Below, one piece after another: positions 1 through 38,634 of a stretch of DNA of 39,376 bases. The notes beneath the pieces were generated by a model that saw only the letters and a program-made list of their open reading frames with translations, searched no databases and had not been told where the DNA came from. The stretch is from a virus: IMG/VR virus record IMGVR_UViG_3300045988_105434. One strand, given 5' to 3'. The translations under genes were made by a program, and so were the position numbers. Position 1 is the first letter of the stretch. Each line of letters opens with the position of its first letter.

Positions 1-55
1 CCACCATTTGTACATTTGTACGAACAGCTCTCTATTCTTACAGGGTTCGTGAGAA
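1..55. repeat. Terminal direct repeat copy 1 (identical to 39322-39376); circular-assembly overlap
   Basis: The first 55 nt (ccaccatttgtacatttgtacgaacagctc...gtgagaa) recur exactly as the last 55 nt. The repeat lies inside a minus-strand ORF that stays open across the junction. Confidence 0.9.
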
Positions 56-1499
56 TAGGGAGTTGTTCTGCGTAATTGTACTGGATTTCAACGTATTCAT
101 TACAAATATAGACGGCACGAACAAGAGACGTGAGAAGTATATCGTTATATTTCTCCGTCTCTTTTGCTTTTTCGCGGATTGTTTCAAAGAAAAACTGGAT
201 TTTTTCTTCCGTCAATAGCCCACTCCCTTGCATTAGCGATGCCTTCGCTAGTTTTTCTTTCAACACGTCCAGGGTTCGTTCGTTTTCATTCAGCGATTCA
301 ACCAGCGCATTTGACATGACACCGTTCTCAATAGCCTTTATACAGTTGTCAATTTTCTTTTGACAGCTGGAAATGTGATTTTTTATGGCACGTATTTCCA
401 ATTCGCTTTCGTCCCGTGGGCGTAGTTTCACAGCCTGCCTTGCGATTTCTTTTATAGCCTTTTTACTCGATAAAATCTCATGTGTTTTGTCACAAACAAG
501 CTTTTCTAACACATCTGCGCGTATGTTTTTTGTCTCACAATACTCGTATCTCGCACTTCTATGGTGGTGTGAACAGCCGTAATAGCAATACTTGTTTCCG
601 TTTTGCGATTTCCCGGAGGTCCCTGATACTTTTGCACCACAGGAGGCGCAAAAAGCTTTCCCCGCTAACAAATAATTGTTGTTTGTCCGGTAAGAGCTAC
701 TTTTCATGGCATTTATCCTTTCCTGCACTGCGTGAAACGCTTCTTTGGAGATAATCGGTGGTATTATCCCTTCTTTCTTTATGTCTTTCCATTGAAATGT
801 ACCGATATATCGCTCATTATGCAAGATATAATAAACACGGCTGCGCGAAAATACCTTTCCAGCGTCCGTCGTGTACTTTTTGTCGTTCAATTTCCTCTCA
901 ATTCTGGCTACCGACATGCCGTCTAGGAACATTTGATATATCATTCGCACGATAGGGGCTTTCTCTTCGTTTATTATCAGACGCCCGCCTTTGTCTAGCT
1001 TGTATCCCAGTGGGATAACGCCGCCCGGCCATTTCCCTTCCAGCGCGTTTTGCGTCATGCCGCGCAATACATTTTCCGATAACTCTGCGCTGTAATATTC
1101 TGCCATGCCTTCAATGACCGATTCGAGCAAAATCCCTGACGGGTCATCCGCTATGTTTTCCATTGCAGAAACGACTTTGACACCATACTTTTTCAGCTTA
1201 TGCTTGTATTTTGCGCTGTCATAGCGGTTCCTGGCAAATCGGTTCAGCTTATAGACCAGGATGACATTGAAGGCCATTGTGGCGGCGTCTCTGATCATCA
1301 TCTGGAACTCCGGACGCTGATCGGAGCGGCCGGTCATAGCGCGATCCGCATAAGTGTGGAGAATGGTGATATTGTTCCGGCGGGCGTAGTCCTCACAAAC
1401 GCGCAACTGGCCTTCTATGGACTCCTCGCGCTGCCGATCGGACGAATATCTTGCATATATGACGGCCTTTGCGGCCTGTTTTTCTTCTGTTTTAGGCAT
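1..1499 (-). CDS. Large serine recombinase (phage integrase), 5' 1499 nt; gene continues across the circular junction to a stop at 39246
   Basis: Absent from the ORF track because it runs off the edge. My translation starts at the ATG at compl(1497-1499), with GGAGG 8 nt upstream: MPKTEEKQAAKAVIYARYSSDRQREESIEGQLRVCEDYARRNNITILHTYADRAMTGRSDQRPEFQMMIRD... This is a resolvase-type catalytic domain with the YxRxSSxxQ serine motif. It is followed by a recombinase domain, a Zn ribbon (KAFCASCGAKVSG...NKYCYYGCSHH) and a coiled-coil tail. Total 524 aa once joined. Confidence 0.85.
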   Translation of the reverse strand, partial: MPKTEEKQAAKAVIYARYSSDRQREESIEGQLRVCEDYARRNNITILHTYADRAMTGRSDQRPEFQMMIRDAATMAFNVILVYKLNRFARNRYDSAKYKHKLKKYGVKVVSAMENIADDPSGILLESVIEGMAEYYSAELSENVLRGMTQNALEGKWPGGVIPLGYKLDKGGRLIINEEKAPIVRMIYQMFLDGMSVARIERKLNDKKYTTDAGKVFSRSRVYYILHNERYIGTFQWKDIKKEGIIPPIISKEAFHAVQERINAMKSSSYRTNNNYLLAGKAFCASCGAKVSGTSGKSQNGNKYCYYGCSHHHRSARYEYCETKNIRADVLEKLVCDKTHEILSSKKAIKEIARQAVKLRPRDESELEIRAIKNHISSCQKKIDNCIKAIENGVMSNALVESLNENERTLDVLKEKLAKASLMQGSGLLTEEKIQFFFETIREKAKETEKYNDILLTSLVRAVYICNEYVEIQYNYAEQLPILTNPVRIESCSYKCTNG

Positions 1500-4042: not shown

Positions 4043-5172
4043 TGGGACACGCTATCTTATCCGCCAGTGGGGCGGCCAGGTGGCTGGCCTGCCCGCCCTC
4101 TGCTAGGGAAGAGCAGAAATACCCGTCGGAATCTAGCCCTTATGCCCGGGAAGGAACCCGGGCGCACGCCTTAGCGGAAAAGCATCTAAAGCGATACCTC
4201 GAGACGGGGGACGCTACCGTAACCTTTGAGGAAGACGCCGGGATGGCCGAGTCCGTGCAGTCCTATGTGGATACGGTTGTCGAGAAGATCACCGAGGCTA
4301 GAACGGCCAGCAAGGATGCACAGATATTCATCGAAAAGAAATTGGATTTTTCCCAATGGGTACCCCACGGCTTTGGCACCGGCGATGCGGTGATACTCTC
4401 CGACGCGTTCCTGGAAATCATTGATTTGAAATATGGTAAGGGCGTACCTGTAAGCGCTAAAAACAACCCTCAGATGAGGCTATACGCCCTCGGCATGTAT
4501 GCCCTTATGGGTTGGCTCTATAGCGCCGAGAATGTGCGGATGACCATCGTACAGCCCCGCCTAGATAGCATTAGCACCGAGACCATCACGGTGAAGGAGC
4601 TGCTCGCCTGGGGCGAATCCATCAAGGATATAGCTGACAAAGCTTTTCAGGGGGAGGGGGAGTACAAAGCGGGGGATCACTGCCGTTTCTGCCGTGCCCG
4701 CAAAGTGTGCCGCACCCGGGCGAACGCTTTGAAAAAGGTGTATCGTAAAGCCTTTGCACCCGGAAACGAACTGGAACCCGAAGAGATCGCCGAAATCGTA
4801 CTTCAGGCGAAGAATATACAGACTTGGTTAGATGAAGTGAAAGAGTACGCTCGTGTAAAGGCCATTAGCGGGGAGAAGTGGCCGGGGCTGAAGCTCGTTC
4901 AAGGGCGCAGCGTACGGAAGATTATCAATAAAGAGGATGCGGGGGAATTGCTGGTAAGTGAAGGCTTCCCCCGTGACAAGATTTTCAAAACCCAGCTTTG
5001 CACAATTACAGAGCTAGAAAAGGTATGCGGCCGTAAGAAGCTAAAGGAGCTTTTACAGGACCAGCACGGTTACATCATAAAGCCCAAAGGGGAGCCGACC
5101 CTAGTGTCCAGTGATGATAAACGTGAAGAAATTCAAAATATTAAAGACTTGTTTGAGGAGGAATCTCAATGA
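4042..5172 (+). CDS. DUF2800-type PD-(D/E)XK (Cas4-like) nuclease
   Basis: N-terminus MGHAILSASGAARWLACPPS, a DxxxLKY-type nuclease core (GDAVILSD..EIIDLKYGKG), and the C-terminal cysteine cluster CRFCRARKVC. Confidence 0.8.
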   Translation: MGHAILSASGAARWLACPPSAREEQKYPSESSPYAREGTRAHALAEKHLKRYLETGDATVTFEEDAGMAESVQSYVDTVVEKITEARTASKDAQIFIEKKLDFSQWVPHGFGTGDAVILSDAFLEIIDLKYGKGVPVSAKNNPQMRLYALGMYALMGWLYSAENVRMTIVQPRLDSISTETITVKELLAWGESIKDIADKAFQGEGEYKAGDHCRFCRARKVCRTRANALKKVYRKAFAPGNELEPEEIAEIVLQAKNIQTWLDEVKEYARVKAISGEKWPGLKLVQGRSVRKIINKEDAGELLVSEGFPRDKIFKTQLCTITELEKVCGRKKLKELLQDQHGYIIKPKGEPTLVSSDDKREEIQNIKDLFEEESQ

Positions 5173-29298: not shown

Positions 29299-30293
29299 TT
29301 GTCAAGCACGAATACATAACGACTGATAGTGATGGGAAAAAGACTCAGCATGTAGATGACATCACGCAGCTAATCAGCCGCATCGAGTGGTCCGGGTCCC
29401 GTTTGCAGGCTGCACGGCGCCTTGCCTTTGATGTGGTACAGGACTATCGAGATCCTAACCTACCTAATCATCCATTGGATAATGGCGATACGGTATATGG
29501 GTACGATGAGGACGGCACGCTTCGATTCCATGGGAATATATTTCATCTGGAGCGGGACGTGCAGGCGTCCAAAGTCTCTGTCACTGCCTATGACAATTTG
29601 TTTATCCTAAATAAAAGCAAAACTACACGTAAATTTACAGACATGACTCCTGAAAGCATCACAGAGTCGGTTTGTAATGAACTGGGAATCGAAACGGGCA
29701 ATATCCTTGCTACAGGGACGCCCGTTTCTTTCATTGCTGTCAGGAAATCTGGCTATCAGATTATTCTCATGGCGTATACCGAGGCGGCGAAGCAAACAAA
29801 GAAGAAATATGCCCTGCTGATGAATGGCAGTAAGCTGGATGTAGTCGAAAAGGGAACTCTCATCGAGGACTACGAAGCCAATGGATATACCAATGTATTG
29901 AATGAACGGTTTGCCGAAAGCATTGAAAACATGGTGAATCAGGTCGTGATCACTGATGCAGAGGGGAATGCCACCGGCTATCAATCCGAAGATGACCAAA
30001 TCAAAAAATATGGCTTGATACAGGATGTATATAAGACCAATCCAAAAGCCAATGCGCAGCAGGAAATCGAATCGTTGCTAAAAGGCCCTGATAGAACCGG
30101 CACCTTAGATATGCTGGGTGATTATCGGGTGGTAGCCCCCTATTCCATTGCCGTGCAGGAGCAATATTTCAAAGGCCAGTTTTGGATCAAGAGTGATAGC
30201 CATATCTTTGAGAATGGTATGCACACCATGAAGCTGGAACTGGAATTTGAAAACATTATGACCAAAGAGGAGGCGGGAGCCAATGGCGGATAA
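29295..30293 (+). CDS. XkdQ-like baseplate hub/late control D-like protein
   Basis: 332 aa; position within the Xkd P-Q-R-S-T-U order. Confidence 0.55.
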   Translation: MIVKHEYITTDSDGKKTQHVDDITQLISRIEWSGSRLQAARRLAFDVVQDYRDPNLPNHPLDNGDTVYGYDEDGTLRFHGNIFHLERDVQASKVSVTAYDNLFILNKSKTTRKFTDMTPESITESVCNELGIETGNILATGTPVSFIAVRKSGYQIILMAYTEAAKQTKKKYALLMNGSKLDVVEKGTLIEDYEANGYTNVLNERFAESIENMVNQVVITDAEGNATGYQSEDDQIKKYGLIQDVYKTNPKANAQQEIESLLKGPDRTGTLDMLGDYRVVAPYSIAVQEQYFKGQFWIKSDSHIFENGMHTMKLELEFENIMTKEEAGANGG

Positions 30294-32710: not shown

Positions 32711-33583
32711 ATGGCAAAATATCTTGATAAATGGAAAACTGATTTTCCCGCTTCGGTGGGGAATGTGACAAGACCAACAGACGGAATCGATGATACTCTT
32801 GACTTCAATTCCGACGGATTTCCGCAGCGAATCTCATCTGATCCGGTTCATTATAAACTGGAAAACGATATGGCAAGTCAGCTCTTCTCTAACGATGCCC
32901 GATTGAAAGAAGCTATTGATGCTAACAAAGCAGCCGGAGATGATACGCTTGCAAATCATAACAAAAGCGCCCAATCCCATGCTACTGGCATTGCGGGAAA
33001 TGCAGCATCTGCCACTAAGCTGAAAACGGCTAGACGCATCAACGTTATTGGAGATTGTCTGACGGGCAAGGCTGCTTCTTTTGATGGAAGTGATGATGCT
33101 GATATCGAAGTTGCTTTAACTACTGCACTAAAAGCATTAGGCAGACTCAGTCCATCAGTTGATAAATTACCTTACTTCACAGGAGCGAACGCAGCATCTC
33201 TTGCCAGTCTGTCAGAATTCATGCGCGGCGTACTTGGTAAAGCGACGGCAGCAGAAGTGCGTACGGCTATTGGGGCTATCAATGAGCCTGGTGTTGGGGT
33301 TATTGCAGGCAATGTGCCAAGCGCTAATGCATGGTGGGTGAAGCTTAGCGGCGCGGTGCCGCTAATTATCCAAGGGGGATATAACGAGACACAAGTTAAT
33401 CATACTCGAACTGTTACTTACCCGATTGGGTACTCAGGAATACTAGGAGTATTGATTACAGAAATTTCTTACCGAGCAGATTCGGATTGGGGAGAACTTA
33501 CTCAAATGCCGAACAATACAAACTTCACATACTATCAAAATGGCAGAAGTACCGGTTCATTTTGGTATTCTATTGGTATCTGA
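32711..33583 (+). CDS. Tail fibre protein, currently expressed allele with a switchable C-terminal tip
   Basis: Mu/P2-type fibre motif SATKLKTARRINVIGDCLTGKAASFDGSDDADIEV. ATG at 32711 follows GGGAGGAA; the track starts at 32696. The C-terminal 67 aa after ...IIQGG are homologous to the two inverted cassettes downstream. Confidence 0.85.
   Translation: MAKYLDKWKTDFPASVGNVTRPTDGIDDTLDFNSDGFPQRISSDPVHYKLENDMASQLFSNDARLKEAIDANKAAGDDTLANHNKSAQSHATGIAGNAASATKLKTARRINVIGDCLTGKAASFDGSDDADIEVALTTALKALGRLSPSVDKLPYFTGANAASLASLSEFMRGVLGKATAAEVRTAIGAINEPGVGVIAGNVPSANAWWVKLSGAVPLIIQGGYNETQVNHTRTVTYPIGYSGILGVLITEISYRADSDWGELTQMPNNTNFTYYQNGRSTGSFWYSIGI
33369..33382 (+). repeat. Inversion site A inside the fibre gene (TCCAAGGGGGATAT)
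   Basis: Encodes I-Q-G-G-Y. A perfect inverted copy lies at 33987-34000 and the 10-nt core recurs inverted at 33797-33806. Has internal dyad TATCC-AAGGG-GGATA. Confidence 0.8.
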
Positions 33584-33806
33584 TTAGATACCTACCGCCA
33601 GCCAAAATTGCTGATGCTCCATATCAAATCCTGCATAAAACACAAATCTCGTAGTTGTATAAGATTTGATGACATCAAGACCACGTCCGGAAGAGTTAGT
33701 ATTATTAACATAGGCGGCGTGCAAGATATTAAATACCCAGCTAAATGCGACTGGATATGTAATAGTCACGTCCGCGCGGCGACTGCTGCCGATAATTCCC
33801 CCTTGG
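33584..33806 (-). other. Silent tail-fibre C-terminal cassette 1 (no start codon or RBS)
   Basis: Minus-strand reading from the core gives QGG-IIGSSRRADVTITYPVAFSWVFNILHAAYVNNTNSSGRGLDVIKSYTTTRFVFYAGFDMEHQQFWLAVGI*. The expressed tip reads QGG-YNETQVNHTRTVTYPIGYSG...SFWYSIGI*. Confidence 0.8.
33797..33806 (-). repeat. Inversion site B (inverted core CCAAGGGGGA)
   Basis: The plus strand reads tcccccttgg. The caa-ggg-gga phase is the same as at site A. Confidence 0.7.
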
Positions 33807-34000
33807 TTAGTAGCCTATCGCTATGTAATGCGCATAACGATCTCTATATCTTTGGAATAAATAAAAATTGGTGGAGGTGTATTCATAGGTTTGTGCAGCT
33901 TCTTCATCGCCTCGTGCTAGTGATGCAACCACAGATAAACAGTTTTGAAAAGAAATCGCAAAAGTAACGGTACTCTGAACCTTATGATATCCCCCTTGGA
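33807..34000 (-). other. Silent tail-fibre C-terminal cassette 2 (no start codon or RBS)
   Basis: Minus-strand reading gives QGG-YHKVQSTVTFAISFQNCLSVVASLARGDEEAAQTYEYTSTNFYLFQRYRDRYAHYIAIGY*. The stop at compl(33807-33809) abuts site B. Confidence 0.8.
33987..34000 (-). repeat. Inversion site C (perfect 14-nt inverted copy of site A)
   Basis: The plus strand reads atatcccccttgga, the reverse complement of TCCAAGGGGGATAT. Confidence 0.8.
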
Positions 34001-34152
34001 GAAAAGCGAATTTTCAATGAGTTGAAAACATCCGATAAACTCAGAATATTCGATACTATCGATATGGAATAAAATGCAATAATCGGCACAAATCTAAGTA
34101 ACGAAAAAGTATCACGATACATACAATACTCGCGGTACTTTTCAAATTGGGC

Positions 34153-34170
34153 AATTCTTTGGTTAGTAGC
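34153..34170 (-). repeat. Degenerate copy of the site B junction (aattc-t-ttggttagtagc)
   Basis: ttggttagtagc (34159-34170) is identical to 33803-33814, and the aattc flank is also shared. The C-run of the core is reduced from ccccc to ct. Confidence 0.5.
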
Positions 34171-34179
34171 AGGTTAGCA

Positions 34180-35196
34180 TCAAATCTTTTCGATAGCTTT
34201 ACGTAGTTGCCGTAGATTTTTGTGAGTGTATACTCCGTTAGTCACATCATGTCTAGCATGACCAAGGATCATTTTTCTGGCGTTATCGTTAACATCGACG
34301 GCATCCAGCAGAGTGGCACATGTATGACGAGTATCATGTGGTTTGTATTTCTCCCCGTGAATTAGCTTCATGACACGGCTAAACAGGCGAGAGAGACGAC
34401 TATAGCCGTAGGGATCCCCACTTTCATCACATAGCAGGAAATCACCTTGTAAAGAGTATCGAGCTTCTACGAGAGGCCATATCTTACTGGCGATAGGGAT
34501 GATTCGTTTTCCGGCTTCGGTCTTTGATTTTGTGATGCGGATATACTTCTGCCTACGATTGATGTCAGTTTTTTTGAGATTACGGAGTTCGCAAGTACGC
34601 ATGCCGGTGTAGATGAGTATCAGTACAATATCGACATCTGCTTTATCAACTAGTTTCCAAAGCCGATTGATGGCTTGCTTACTCATGGCTTGATGAGGAT
34701 TGACTGGCTTGTTTTTACCGATTCGGATAAGCCCGGTAAAATCATGAAACGTGTATTCCATTTTGCGAGCGTATGCAAATAGCAGTGATAGCAGGTTGCG
34801 GACCTTTTTCTTGCTGGCATATGATAACCTATTCATTCCATCTATGACGGTTTGTAAATGGCTGTATTTGATGTCGGATACTGGTAAGTCATACAAAAGC
34901 CTGCAGTGCTTATAGGCGCTTTCGTAGCCGTGTATGGTGCTATCAGACACGCTGCTGTATTCGATGTGTTTGGGAAGCCAGCGTGCATATAATTCTGCAA
35001 ATGTTATTTTGTTGTCTGAAAGGCGGTGGAGCCCATGAGATTGATTGTAATCAACTTGATAAGCCATTGCTTCCAACTTAGTAGCAAAGTAACCAATGAC
35101 TTTCTGCTTGCCTTGCTGGGACACAACAAAGCAATACGGCCGCCGCCGTGAACCACTTAATAATTTAATACAACCATATCCATTTGGATTTTTCAT
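34180..35196 (-). CDS. Tyrosine recombinase (phage-integrase family), candidate fibre-tip invertase
   Basis: Catalytic signature GMRTCELRNL (Arg), HDTRHTCATLL (HxxR), LGHARHD and VYTH (Tyr). The N-terminal NGYGCIKLLSGSRRRPYCFVV...IGYFATKLEAMAY is the arm-type/AP2-like domain of Firmicutes phage integrases. Confidence 0.85.
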   Translation of the reverse strand: MKNPNGYGCIKLLSGSRRRPYCFVVSQQGKQKVIGYFATKLEAMAYQVDYNQSHGLHRLSDNKITFAELYARWLPKHIEYSSVSDSTIHGYESAYKHCRLLYDLPVSDIKYSHLQTVIDGMNRLSYASKKKVRNLLSLLFAYARKMEYTFHDFTGLIRIGKNKPVNPHQAMSKQAINRLWKLVDKADVDIVLILIYTGMRTCELRNLKKTDINRRQKYIRITKSKTEAGKRIIPIASKIWPLVEARYSLQGDFLLCDESGDPYGYSRLSRLFSRVMKLIHGEKYKPHDTRHTCATLLDAVDVNDNARKMILGHARHDVTNGVYTHKNLRQLRKAIEKI

Positions 35197-35678: not shown

Positions 35679-35816
35679 ATGGAAAGATGTTTCATTTGCC
35701 ATCGCAAGATGGATAACAAGACTGGACTTTGCACTAATGCGAAATGTATCAGATCGAAGCCGCTGACACCCAAAGATGAAACGGAAGAAAAGAAAGATGC
35801 GGAGGATAAAACATGA
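35679..35816 (+). CDS. Small CxxC...CxxxxC protein (45 aa)
   Basis: MERCFICHRKMDNKTGLCTNAKCIRSKPLTPKDETEEKKDAEDKT. Starts right after the previous stop, and its own stop overlaps the holin ATG (ATGA). Confidence 0.4.
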   Translation: MERCFICHRKMDNKTGLCTNAKCIRSKPLTPKDETEEKKDAEDKT

Positions 35817-36319
35817 CTGAAATCTTCATTCAAATTTACAATTCCGCCGATCGTGCGATTTGCAGCATCCCGGACGGCTGGCCCTACAAAATTCTTATGG
35901 GGATCTTACTCATCGCCATGTCGAAGCACATCATGCTTTTTACTGCATTCGCCGTGTTGGTGGCTCTTGACTTGTTCGCCAAATTTATTGCCCTGTCCTA
36001 TCACTGGCTGATTGAGAACAATGTGGAAAAGCCCTCGCTGGTAGATTCCATCCGAGGCATTCCAGCGGCACATCGGGCTCGTATCATCAATAGCCATGAA
36101 ATGAAAACGCAGTTTGCAGGGAAAATCTTTGCTTATATGTTTTTGGTGATTGCTGGCGGTCTAGCCGATATCCTTGTGGGCCATGTCAATTTTGCACAGA
36201 TCGTGATTTCCTACCTGGCATCCACCGAGCTTCTCAGCATCGTGGAGAACCTGGACGATGCTGGTGTGTCTAGGGTCCATAATTTAGCTGCAGTAATTAA
36301 AAAGAGGAGTCCAACATGA
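35813..36319 (+). CDS. Holin (phage_holin_4_1 / TcdE-like)
   Basis: Multiple TM segments and the family-typical ...STELLSIVENLDDAG... C-terminal motif. Lies just upstream of the endolysin. Confidence 0.75.
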   Translation: MTEIFIQIYNSADRAICSIPDGWPYKILMGILLIAMSKHIMLFTAFAVLVALDLFAKFIALSYHWLIENNVEKPSLVDSIRGIPAAHRARIINSHEMKTQFAGKIFAYMFLVIAGGLADILVGHVNFAQIVISYLASTELLSIVENLDDAGVSRVHNLAAVIKKRSPT

Positions 36320-36420
36320 AATTAAAAGAATGGGTCGTTATTTACGTGGCAGTCTTTTTGTTTACCGTAGGGGATTGGATAAAGGGACGTTGGAAAAAGG
36401 AGGATAACGAATGCTGGTAA
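36316..36420 (+). CDS. Small single-TM protein (34 aa) between holin and endolysin
   Basis: MKLKEWVVIYVAVFLFTVGDWIKGRWKKEDNECW. ATGA overlap with the holin stop, and overlaps the endolysin start by 10 nt. Confidence 0.4.
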   Translation: MKLKEWVVIYVAVFLFTVGDWIKGRWKKEDNECW

Positions 36421-36989
36421 CTGATTTAAGTGACTGGAATGATCACATTAACTGGTCTCATCTCATCGCCGCAGGAGTCGGTGGTGCGATTGTGAAGATT
36501 TCCGAGGGCAGAAGCCTGACTCAACTGCACGGAAAACATATCGCCGGTGCGGAGGCTAGGGGATTGCCGTGGGGCGCCTATTGCTACACGCACGCACAAA
36601 CTACCGAGCGAGCAAGAGAAGAAGCAAATCGAGTGATCGAGGCGCTGAATGCATTGGGGTACGGTACACCGCCGTTAGGGATTTGGTTTGATGTGGAAGC
36701 GCCCGAAGTCATTGGGCAGGATAGGGAAGATGTGACCGCCATCTGTAGTGCATTTATTTCAGAATGCAATGCCGCGGGTTATTCTGCCGGAATCTATGCA
36801 AGTCTGTCTACTATCACAGACTGCATGAATCTTGATGATCTAGCTGATTATGTACCCGTATGGATTGCCCAATATGCCGGTGCATGTGATTTCCATGATT
36901 ATTTCCCGAGCAGAATCCTTGCTGGTTGGCAATATACTGATTCTTTTGAAATTGATGGGCGGAAATATGATTTAAGTGAATGGTACTGA
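36411..36989 (+). CDS. GH25 muramidase endolysin, catalytic domain only
   Basis: DLSDWNDHINWSHLIAAGVGGAIVKISEG...WGAYCYTHA...GIWFDVE...WIAQY pattern of GH25. At 192 aa there is no room for a cell-wall-binding domain. Confidence 0.8.
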   Translation: MLVTDLSDWNDHINWSHLIAAGVGGAIVKISEGRSLTQLHGKHIAGAEARGLPWGAYCYTHAQTTERAREEANRVIEALNALGYGTPPLGIWFDVEAPEVIGQDREDVTAICSAFISECNAAGYSAGIYASLSTITDCMNLDDLADYVPVWIAQYAGACDFHDYFPSRILAGWQYTDSFEIDGRKYDLSEWY

Positions 36990-37496: not shown

Positions 37497-38294
37497 ATGG
37501 CTGCTATTGATAAAATTCTGAGAAAATCCAATTTTGCTGCTGCTATGACCGCTTTGATTGCAAAGCTGAATAGCCTTTTTGTCAGGAAGGAAACCGGGAA
37601 AGGCCTTTCTACCAATGATTATACTTCCGCAGAAAAAGCAAAGCTCGCAGGCGTAGCAGCAGGAGCGAATAACTACGTCCTTCCGGCACCGACAGCAAGC
37701 ACCATCGGTGGTGTCAAGGCGGGCAATAATGTGACTATTTCCGAAGACGGTACGATTTCCGCTATTCAGGGTTACGTGGACCTGTCTCCCTACGCAAAGA
37801 CGGCCGATGTAAATACTGCTTTGGGTAAAAAGGCAGATGTAGCCACCACGCTGAAAGGCTATGGTATCACGGATGCCAAGATCGCGGGCGGTGTCATTAC
37901 ATTGGGTGCTAATACCATTACCCCGCTGACGCAGCATCAGTCGCTTGCTGCCTATGCAAAGAGCGCGGACGTAGATAGTACTTATGCGAAAAAAGCAGAC
38001 ATCACCACAGTCTATAAGTACCGCGGGAGTGTGGACACCTATGCGGATCTCCCCGTTAATGGGAATGCTGTAGGCGATGTATACAACGTCGTGGCGGCGG
38101 ATGCGTCTCACGGAATCAAAGCCGGAGATAATGTAGTTTGGAATGGCAATGCATGGGATAATCTGTCCGGCGTGGTTGACTTGTCTGCTTATATCAAAGC
38201 TGCTGATGCTGATAAGAAATATATGCAGCTTAACAACTTCCCACTGTCGACGGATGAGGAAATTACAGCCATCGTCAACGAAACTATTGTATAA
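37497..38294 (+). CDS. Fibre-like protein (KGLSTNDYT motif, repeated Y-A-K-x-A-D-V units)
   Basis: GKGLSTNDYTSAEKAKLAGV motif common in phage fibre proteins. Internal repeats YAKTADVNTALGKKADV, YAKSADVDSTYAKKADI and YIKAADADKKY. Confidence 0.6.
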   Translation: MAAIDKILRKSNFAAAMTALIAKLNSLFVRKETGKGLSTNDYTSAEKAKLAGVAAGANNYVLPAPTASTIGGVKAGNNVTISEDGTISAIQGYVDLSPYAKTADVNTALGKKADVATTLKGYGITDAKIAGGVITLGANTITPLTQHQSLAAYAKSADVDSTYAKKADITTVYKYRGSVDTYADLPVNGNAVGDVYNVVAADASHGIKAGDNVVWNGNAWDNLSGVVDLSAYIKAADADKKYMQLNNFPLSTDEEITAIVNETIV

Positions 38295-38307
38295 GTGAGG
38301 TGCTAGC

Positions 38308-38634
38308 ATGAGCACTTACAAGGACTCGCTGCTGGGGGCTATCCGGAAACTATGCACGCAGCTGGACAAGAAATTCGCTAAGTCGTCTGATATGGTAAGT
38401 GTCATTGGGCTGCTTTCTGCATATAGGCAGGATATGAATATGTACGTAAAGAAAGCCGACTTATACCCTGTGGGCAGTATCATTATGTCTATCACTAATA
38501 TCGATCCTGCTTCGCTCTACGGGGGTACTTGGGTGTCAGGTGCATATCTCTCGCAATACGGCGGGCAAATTATATTTTCTGAAGGGGCTACTCCTATTAA
38601 CGGAGCGCCTTATGTATATAAGAGGATAAAATAA
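38308..38634 (+). CDS. Short fibre-tip-like protein (YPVGSI..S....P..LYGGTW motif)
   Basis: LYPVGSIIMSITNIDPASLYGGTWVSG resembles the conserved tip motif of many phage tail-fibre C-termini. Confidence 0.5.
   Translation: MSTYKDSLLGAIRKLCTQLDKKFAKSSDMVSVIGLLSAYRQDMNMYVKKADLYPVGSIIMSITNIDPASLYGGTWVSGAYLSQYGGQIIFSEGATPINGAPYVYKRIK

Follow-up and report, generated by a model that had tools for sequence, protein, structure and literature searches.

A probable shufflon-type tail-fibre switch next to a tyrosine recombinase in a contractile-tailed phage of Dialister hominis

IMG/VR virus record IMGVR_UViG_3300045988_105434, a stretch of 39,376 nucleotides (nt) that we call the window and to whose full length all coordinates refer, contains a tail-fibre gene followed, on the opposite strand, by two silent cassettes that resemble the fibre tip and by the gene of a tyrosine recombinase. 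When assembled contigs were compared between gut-metagenome samples, all three fibre forms predicted from inversion at short repeats (the present tip, cassette 1 or cassette 2 fused to the fibre shaft) were found to occur in nature, with their breakpoints in the repeat core. We consider it very probable that the locus is a shufflon-type host-range switch of a temperate phage, operated by the adjacent recombinase. The initial annotation, made from the letters of the window, had proposed a multi-cassette invertible fibre tip served by this enzyme; the natural isomers support the proposal, which is now on firmer ground because all of the isomers have been observed.

Crossover sites, tips and natural isomers

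The fibre open reading frame (ORF) lies directly downstream of Baseplate_J and Mu Gp48-like genes (Pfam) and has PHROG tail-fibre matches; its ATG is preceded by a GGAGGA ribosome-binding site, and its product, counted in amino acids (aa) below, ends ...PLIIQGG-YNETQ...FWYSIGI*. The features of the locus are as follows.

32711-33583, plus strand: tail-fibre gene as now expressed, 290 aa, comprising the constant shaft (aa 1-219) and tip A; called from the ORF and its ribosome-binding site
32711-33366, plus strand: constant portion of the fibre gene, delimited by shaft identity among homologues
33367-33382, plus strand: site A, within the expressed gene, TAT-CCAAGGGGGA-TAT, core 33370-33379 forming codons Q-G-G
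33371-33583, plus strand: tip A, the variable segment fused to the shaft, 70 aa and stop
33584-33805, minus strand: silent cassette 1, 73 aa and stop, without a start codon at its head
33794-33809, minus strand: site B, TAA-CCAAGGGGGA-ATT, core 33806->33797, its TAA being the stop of cassette 2
33807-33998, minus strand: silent cassette 2, 63 aa and stop
33987-34002, minus strand: site C, TCT-CCAAGGGGGA-TAT, core 33999->33990, the outermost site and fixed edge of the invertible region
34003-34179, minus strand: fixed non-coding spacer, not a cassette, from an alignment of 14 loci
34139->34104, minus strand: conserved hairpin and T-run just 3' of the recombinase stop
34180-35196, minus strand: tyrosine recombinase, 338 aa, the proposed invertase, with Phage_integrase and SAM_3 domains

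The 10-mer core CCAAGGGGGA has exactly three exact copies in the 39,376 bases, against about 0.07 expected from base composition, and all three lie in the locus, one in the fibre gene at QGG and two inverted at the heads of cassettes 1 and 2. The longer sequence TCCAAGGGGGATAT at 33369-33382 (plus strand) has an inverted copy at 33987-34000 that matches at 14 of 14 positions, and in a repeat search the site pairs were the two longest inverted repeats of the region (17 nt at 94% and 20 nt at 80%). Read in the caa-ggg-gga phase, cassette 1 (33805->33584) gives QGGIIGSS...FWLAVGI* and cassette 2 (33998->33807) gives QGGYHKVQ...YIAIGY*, each open to its stop, beside QGGYNETQ...FWYSIGI* for the expressed tip A; the TAA stop of cassette 2, at 33809-33807, abuts the core of cassette 1. 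The G+C content of 33369-34179 is 39.3%, compared with 48.3% for the whole window. The fibre ending, the in-phase opposite-strand frames without start codons, the three repeat sites and the abutting stop, all pointed out in the initial annotation, can be read directly from the sequence; the 14/14 inverted repeat and the inverted core at 33797-33806 were recovered, and the A+T-rich character noted for the module was borne out.

Homology of the frames to the expressed tip was assessed by profile comparison. Against Pfam PF21882 (Gp53-like_C), whose gathering cut-off is 24.9 bits, cassette 2 scored 28.6, above the cut-off, with cassette 1 (23.0) and tip A (20.6) just below it. For each query a tip profile was also built, restricted to tips from other fibres that share less than 40% identity with that query; on these profiles the three tips scored 40.1, 26.4 and 29.7 bits, and the best of 200 shuffles reached 5-13 bits. 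Pairwise identity among the three tips of the window is 18-30%. On these scores, PF21882 matches together with 26-40 bits on the family's own tip profile, we take both silent cassettes to be homologues of the tail-fibre tip, in agreement with the initial annotation.

We collected 427 fibre homologues, whose first 222 residues are near-invariant and whose divergence is total immediately after Q-G-G. One of them (P0016), on an 87-kb gut-metagenome contig (L001, from reads ERR1190833), has cassette 1 as its tip; this contig is the window with exactly 33367-33809 inverted, and the flanks on both sides are 99.7-99.96% identical. Another contig (L010) is the window with 33366-34003 inverted and flanks 99.4-99.6% identical; there the shaft carries cassette 2, after which come GY*-site-cassette 1, directly oriented, and finally tip A, inverted and adjoining the fixed ...TTTTCT flank. 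Site A is the breakpoint common to both inversions, site B the right breakpoint of the first and site C that of the second, and the left flank of site C, ...TTTTCT, is unchanged in all isomers. The A x B inversion, which expresses cassette 1, is present in L001, L002, L016 and L019, and the A x C inversion, which expresses cassette 2, in L009, L010 and L012. In these contigs every breakpoint lies within the repeat, with flanks of 97-99.9% identity; tip A is silent and inverted in L001, L010, L016 and L019. Both in-frame products that had been predicted for inversion to either silent site were thereby found, in contigs from other gut samples.

Some contigs bear on the state of the locus within a sample. 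Two (L002, from reads ERR1398240, and L013) are fold-backs consisting of the shaft, a segment and the reverse-complemented shaft, a shape that requires both junctions among the reads of one sample. Three others (L015, L020 and L024) terminate at site A or within ~45 nt of it, the behaviour expected of an assembler where the orientation branches. The fold-backs and the breaks at site A suggest mixed orientations inside single samples. An odd join is seen in a low-coverage contig, L011 (ERZ1023619 NODE-1372), where at 1394-1405 the shaft at site A is joined to the reverse complement of window 29483->28163. The join runs through the microhomology ATTATCCAA..GGAT, and the corresponding pseudo-site in the window, 29472-29486 (minus strand), lies in a baseplate gene; this is either an aberrant inversion at the pseudo-site or a chimeric assembly.

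The relatives vary in array size, from two tips in L016 through three in the window and four in L019 to at least six in L004. In the last of these, the site pattern detected no cassette in the ~260 nt (4853-5113) that separate the expressed tip from the next direct site; the interval may hold a cassette with a variant site, and six is a lower bound. Among 118 fibres, tips fall into 34 clusters at 60% identity, and tips have a median pairwise identity of 28%, shafts one of 96.8%. From 60 distinct sites we derived the consensus T-A-N-[A/C]CA[G/A]GG[T/G]G[G/T]A-W-N-T, of which ~11-16 bp are conserved; at internal sites the T-A at -3/-2 belongs to the stop with which the preceding cassette ends. 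In some expressed fibres QGV, QGI or QGT stands in place of QGG, and the exchange would therefore take place at or before the second G codon, giving a shared core of ~11 bp.

The recombinase, the spacer and the conserved module

The recombinase matches the Pfam families Phage_integrase (PF00589, 5.7e-21) and SAM_3 (PF14659), the latter a SAM-like core-binding domain. Its intact active-site signature, claimed in the initial annotation, is confirmed by the invariance of six catalytic residues (R200, K225, H287, R290, H313 and Y323) in 42 homologues, down to 54% identity. The best structural matches are the Tn1549 integrase (Int) and full-length lambda Int, with expect values (E) of ~1e-10 over ~350 aligned columns, and the nearest annotated phage relatives in a protein search are integrases at most 35% identical. 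No curated Xer, integron or Rci model in NCBIfam scored above threshold: Xer and integron-integrase gave weak, sub-threshold matches and Rci none. The protein is identical to WP_303229497.1 of Dialister hominis and occurs on at least 1000 public contigs. In one isolate, Dialister sp. i34-0019-2H8 (NZ_BAABYQ010000001; L008, 5478-6480), it is in two frames, residues 1-77 and 83-338; the cause may be a sequencing error or a frameshift, and in the latter case the array of that isolate would be locked.

The initial annotation had ascribed to this integrase-type enzyme an arm-binding N-terminal domain. The full-length alignment to lambda Int fits that description, as does the topology: conservation in residues 1-55 is among the highest in the protein, and residues 9-53 are predicted to form strand-strand-strand-helix (predicted local distance difference test, pLDDT, ~80-90), the topology of arm-type (AP2-like) domains. 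Against it, a fold search with the isolated domain returned no significant match, the AP2 domain 1gcc ranking second with E 0.4, and the domain had no Pfam match at E up to 10 and none in a PDB profile search. Arm-type sites were not identified, no systematic search for them having been made. An arm-binding role for the domain is thus only plausible, on the structure prediction.

Between the last site and the recombinase lies a spacer (~180 nt) of constant length, ~192-196 nt separating the recombinase stop from the last site in 12 of 14 loci, although its site-proximal half differs among lineages. The hairpin at 34139->34104 folds at -12.3 kcal/mol (z -2.5) and shows some compensatory changes across lineages; with its T-run it probably terminates transcription of the recombinase gene, and it may also block read-through from the fibre side. 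We examined an open frame at 34122->33982 as a third cassette and rejected it, given that it does not fit the tip profile and lies in the constant-length spacer with the hairpin. The window therefore has exactly two silent cassettes, and of the "three or more tips" of the initial annotation it is the figure of three that stands.

An exact 12-nt direct repeat, TTGGTTAGTAGC, is found at 34159-34170 and 33803-33814. Its copy after the recombinase stop reads GCTACTAACCAAAGAATT on the minus strand and resembles the end of a cassette plus site B without the G-run, and the stretch CTGCTACTAAC is conserved in 14 of 14 aligned loci. It could be the relic of an old site, or chance. We considered 34150-34170 as a degenerate fourth site or third cassette and rejected it as a cassette, the region being the fixed spacer with its terminator-like hairpin.

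Three further features lie at the start of the window.

1-1499, minus strand: large serine recombinase, cut by the window start, identified from its translation; context, not part of the switch
1692-2132: ImmA-like peptidase, beside the serine recombinase
2137-2544: helix-turn-helix (HTH) repressor, beside the serine recombinase

Full-length copies of the serine recombinase in five longer contigs (L030-L034) have 516 aa with Resolvase, Recombinase and Zn_ribbon_recom domains and lie at the prophage end, between the ImmA-like gene of the ImmA/repressor pair and host genes. It is the prophage integrase. The tyrosine recombinase was accordingly rejected for that role, and since the serine enzyme accounts for integration the tyrosine enzyme is free to act as an invertase. 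A 2.5-Mb Dialister sp. contig contains a relative; the host is Dialister, and the phage a temperate, contractile-tailed phage of D. hominis. A nucleotide search found no close relatives among deposited phages, and a protein search of deposited phages with the fibre gave only T4-like gp37 shaft-repeat matches.

Recombinases 54-58% identical to that of the window (P0207, P0217 and P0237) are encoded convergently to a Gp53-like fibre in other myovirus prophages, whose baseplate modules differ (Mu Gp48-like or P2 gpI-like). Fibre and recombinase are there ~1.1-1.4 kb apart, with no called genes in the gap except one small ORF in two loci, and the gaps hold cassettes headed by ACAGTGGGGA, ACAGTGGGTA or CCAAGGGGGA. 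Two of the contigs, from two samples (L038 and L039), are inversion isomers of each other. This conserved linkage of recombinase and cassettes is the main argument for the adjacent enzyme as catalyst.

Two kinds of observation concern the module and its surroundings. (i) At ~6880-6900 of L038 and L039, the constant part of a different and longer fibre (481-487 aa), which belongs to a P2-gpI-type baseplate setting, ends with the DNA tgccgctaattatCCAAGGGGGA, the same as window 33356-33379; it seems that the final codons of the shaft, the tip array and the recombinase move together as a single module. (ii) Downstream in the window, a holin (35813-36319) and a glycoside hydrolase family 25 (GH25) endolysin (36411-36989) are followed by structural-looking genes at 37497-38634 (plus strand), namely a 265-aa protein with head-fibre/tail-protein matches and a 108-aa ORF, an unusual place for virion genes.

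Proposed mechanism and alternative explanations

The constant shaft ends ...PLIIQGG and is followed by a Gp53-like, presumably receptor-binding tip of 60-83 aa, and the alternative tips, promoterless and on the opposite strand, are each headed by an inverted site of ~11-16 bp, TAN-[A/C]CA[G/A]GG[T/G]G-. This site encodes the Q-G(-G) joint, the left edge of internal sites serving as the stop codon of the previous cassette. In the mechanism we propose, the adjacent tyrosine recombinase would bring the site of the expressed gene into synapsis with a silent, inverted one and exchange strands in the shared core; the DNA between the paired sites would invert, and the new tip would be joined in frame at Q-G-G. 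In the window, A x B would yield the fibre with cassette 1 and A x C the fibre with cassette 2. After A x C, cassette 1 would be in direct orientation and later inversions would permute the array, such that a lysogen population should release virions with differing tips. From the sequence comparisons we infer that the adjacent recombinase would be the catalyst, that switching would occur at a useful frequency within a lineage, and that the tips would set receptor specificity and hence affect host range.

Several observations weigh against this interpretation. The conserved site is short for the core of a tyrosine recombinase, and neither a second binding arm nor an accessory site was found. 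Both CCAAGGGGGA and ACAGGGTGGA cores are served by recombinase alleles that share 75-95% identity. Direct-orientation sites occur (A and B in L010), and deletion must therefore somehow be avoided; L016 has no cassette 2. Finally, the isomers were compared across samples, and switching within a sample is deduced from assembler behaviour. We also looked for co-variation of the core variant with the recombinase allele and discarded it for want of a clear pattern, the 75-95% identical alleles spanning both cores. In L016, whose recombinase allele is 79% identical to that of the window, identity to the window falls from ~97% to ~78% exactly at site C (5084-5100, corresponding to window 33987), and site C therefore also marks a mosaic junction between phage lineages.

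The inversions might be real yet catalysed in trans, by a host invertase or the phage serine recombinase; the tyrosine enzyme would then do something else, for example transfer the A+T-rich tip module from phage to phage or serve as a second integrase. The resemblance of the enzyme to an ordinary phage integrase would fit, its best structural matches being Tn1549 Int and lambda Int and its nearest annotated phage relatives, ~35% identical, being labelled integrases; so would the presence of the A+T-rich module in different phage backbones and the mosaic junction of L016 exactly at site C. Master invertases acting in trans are known in gut bacteria, Mpi being the example cited in one paper (PMC6109161). 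We nevertheless regard catalysis in trans as improbable: recombinase and array stay linked in the same convergent layout across 54-100% recombinase identity and different baseplate types, integration is already explained by the serine integrase, and no other recombinase is near the module.

An explanation without programmed inversion, in which the isomers are fixed differences from occasional homologous or illegitimate recombination at a short coding motif, or artefacts of assembly across inverted repeats, draws on the fact that all comparisons are between assembled contigs, on the shortness of the repeat, and on L011, whose join of site A to an unrelated inverted pseudo-site at ~29480 indicates that odd joins occur in these data. 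A repeat of 10-14 nt is, however, shorter than assembler k-mers and cannot alone create false joins. Each alternative junction is present in three or four independent assemblies from different studies, every breakpoint maps to the same core, and every product keeps the reading frame; 60 distinct cassettes retain the site at their head, and the linkage to the recombinase is conserved. We judge this explanation very unlikely. The least credible reading, to which we assign almost no weight, takes the downstream frames for decayed remnants of a duplicated fibre or for separate small genes, e.g. fibre chaperones. Such frames are sometimes called as small ORFs (a 79 aa gene in L003), and there are internal GTG ORFs in the window, but they lack a start codon at the head, run open from site to stop, still match the profile of the tip family, and occur in other samples as fusions to the shaft.

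Relation to known switches and significance

The closest known system, the Rin shufflon (Mavrich et al. 2018), comes from prophages of Bifidobacterium breve/longum and was described as the first case of a phage-encoded tyrosine invertase that acts on a receptor-binding protein (RBP); in it, a constant Rc gene, Rv cassettes and 11-bp rix sites are flanked by the tyrosine invertase (PMC6109161); it was met again in Eggerthella lenta prophages (2022, PMC8778435), and surveys of programmed inversion include tail fibres among the targets (PMC9881135). The initial annotation had seen shufflon logic combined with a fibre gene, and the combination holds; it is not a first, given the Rin publication of 2018 (PMC6109161). 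In both the Rin and the Dialister systems, a gene for the constant N-terminal part of an RBP precedes a tandem array of promoterless C-terminal cassettes, a short asymmetric repeat (the 11-bp rix in Rin) stands at the head of each cassette, and the flanking tyrosine recombinase is distinct from the phage integrase. Both invert at the repeats, contain some direct sites, and have highly dissimilar tips.

The two differ in host phylum (Negativicutes, represented by Dialister, versus Actinobacteria for Rin) and in phage, the Dialister phage having a contractile tail with Baseplate_J and Mu Gp48-like genes and the Rin phages being siphoviruses. The tips are 60-83 aa and Gp53-like_C here, whereas those of Rin are TP901-1-RBP-like heads of 95-100 aa; the sites are TAN[A/C]CA[G/A]GG[T/G]G and TTCCCTAACCC, respectively. 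The enzymes are set apart by description: ours has a predicted extra N-terminal domain, and Rin is two-domain, XerD-like and armless. The phage integrase is a serine recombinase here and a tyrosine recombinase in the Rin phages.

Tail-fibre C-termini are also switched by site-specific inversion in the Min (plasmid-prophage p15B), Gin (Mu), Cin (P1) and Pin (e14) systems, and Min, like the Dialister system, has several crossover sites and many isomers; it is the older precedent for fibre inversion at multiple sites. These four use small serine invertases with an enhancer and Fis, in contrast to the tyrosine recombinase proposed here, and their invertible segment includes fibre-assembly genes, whereas the Dialister switch exchanges the tip only. 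The only serine recombinase of the Dialister phage is the 516-aa integrase ~32 kb from the switch; no small serine invertase adjoins the segment.

The R64/IncI shufflon (Rci, sfx, pilV) shares with the Dialister system a tyrosine recombinase, multiple short asymmetric sites, the switching of an adhesin C-terminus on a constant N-terminus, and inversion rather than deletion. Its target is the tip of a conjugative pilus, not a phage fibre, and its 19-bp sfx sites comprise a 7-bp spacer and a conserved right arm of 12 bp, compared with Dialister sites of ~11-16 bp and different sequence. The R64 enzyme is Rci, while the Dialister enzyme matches no Rci model and resembles integrases of phages and of integrative and conjugative elements (ICEs). 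With the heterobivalent integrases of the lambda-Int and Tn916-Tn1549 types it has in common the catalytic hexad, the SAM-like core-binding domain and, by prediction here, the N-terminal strand-strand-strand-helix domain. Those enzymes integrate and excise; the Dialister enzyme is proposed to invert DNA within a phage structural gene. We identified no directionality factor for it.

In open-access papers and bioRxiv preprints we found no report of such a switch in Dialister or other Negativicutes, nor of a Gp53-like tip array. The Dialister switch shares the logic of Rin and is not categorically new, and the conceptual advance over Rin and Min is modest; what it does is to extend tyrosine-invertase fibre shufflons from siphoviruses of Actinobacteria to myoviruses of Negativicutes. 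A bolder possibility, which we put forward only tentatively and think somewhat less likely to be true than false, is that a separate, integrase-derived lineage of phage invertases with an arm-type N-terminal domain, unrelated to Rin and Rci, forms a portable tip-shuffling module, rich in A+T, along with the tip array and the last few codons of the shaft; the module would move between unrelated contractile-tailed gut prophages and draw its tips from a common pool numbering dozens. If the N-terminal domain binds accessory sites in the fixed spacer, this could explain why inversion is favoured over deletion, a preference left open in the Rin paper (PMC6109161).

The contigs of this locus break or fold back at the site, and assemblies and strain-level virome comparisons therefore misread it. 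The fibres represent a natural library in which at least 34 tip types are attached to one shaft at a fixed Q-G-G seam; it can be used directly for the engineering of receptor-binding tips. The phage is very common in the human gut, and its recombinase is annotated in D. hominis only as "integrase"; a programmed host-range switch would therefore have gone unrecognised in a prevalent gut bacterium.

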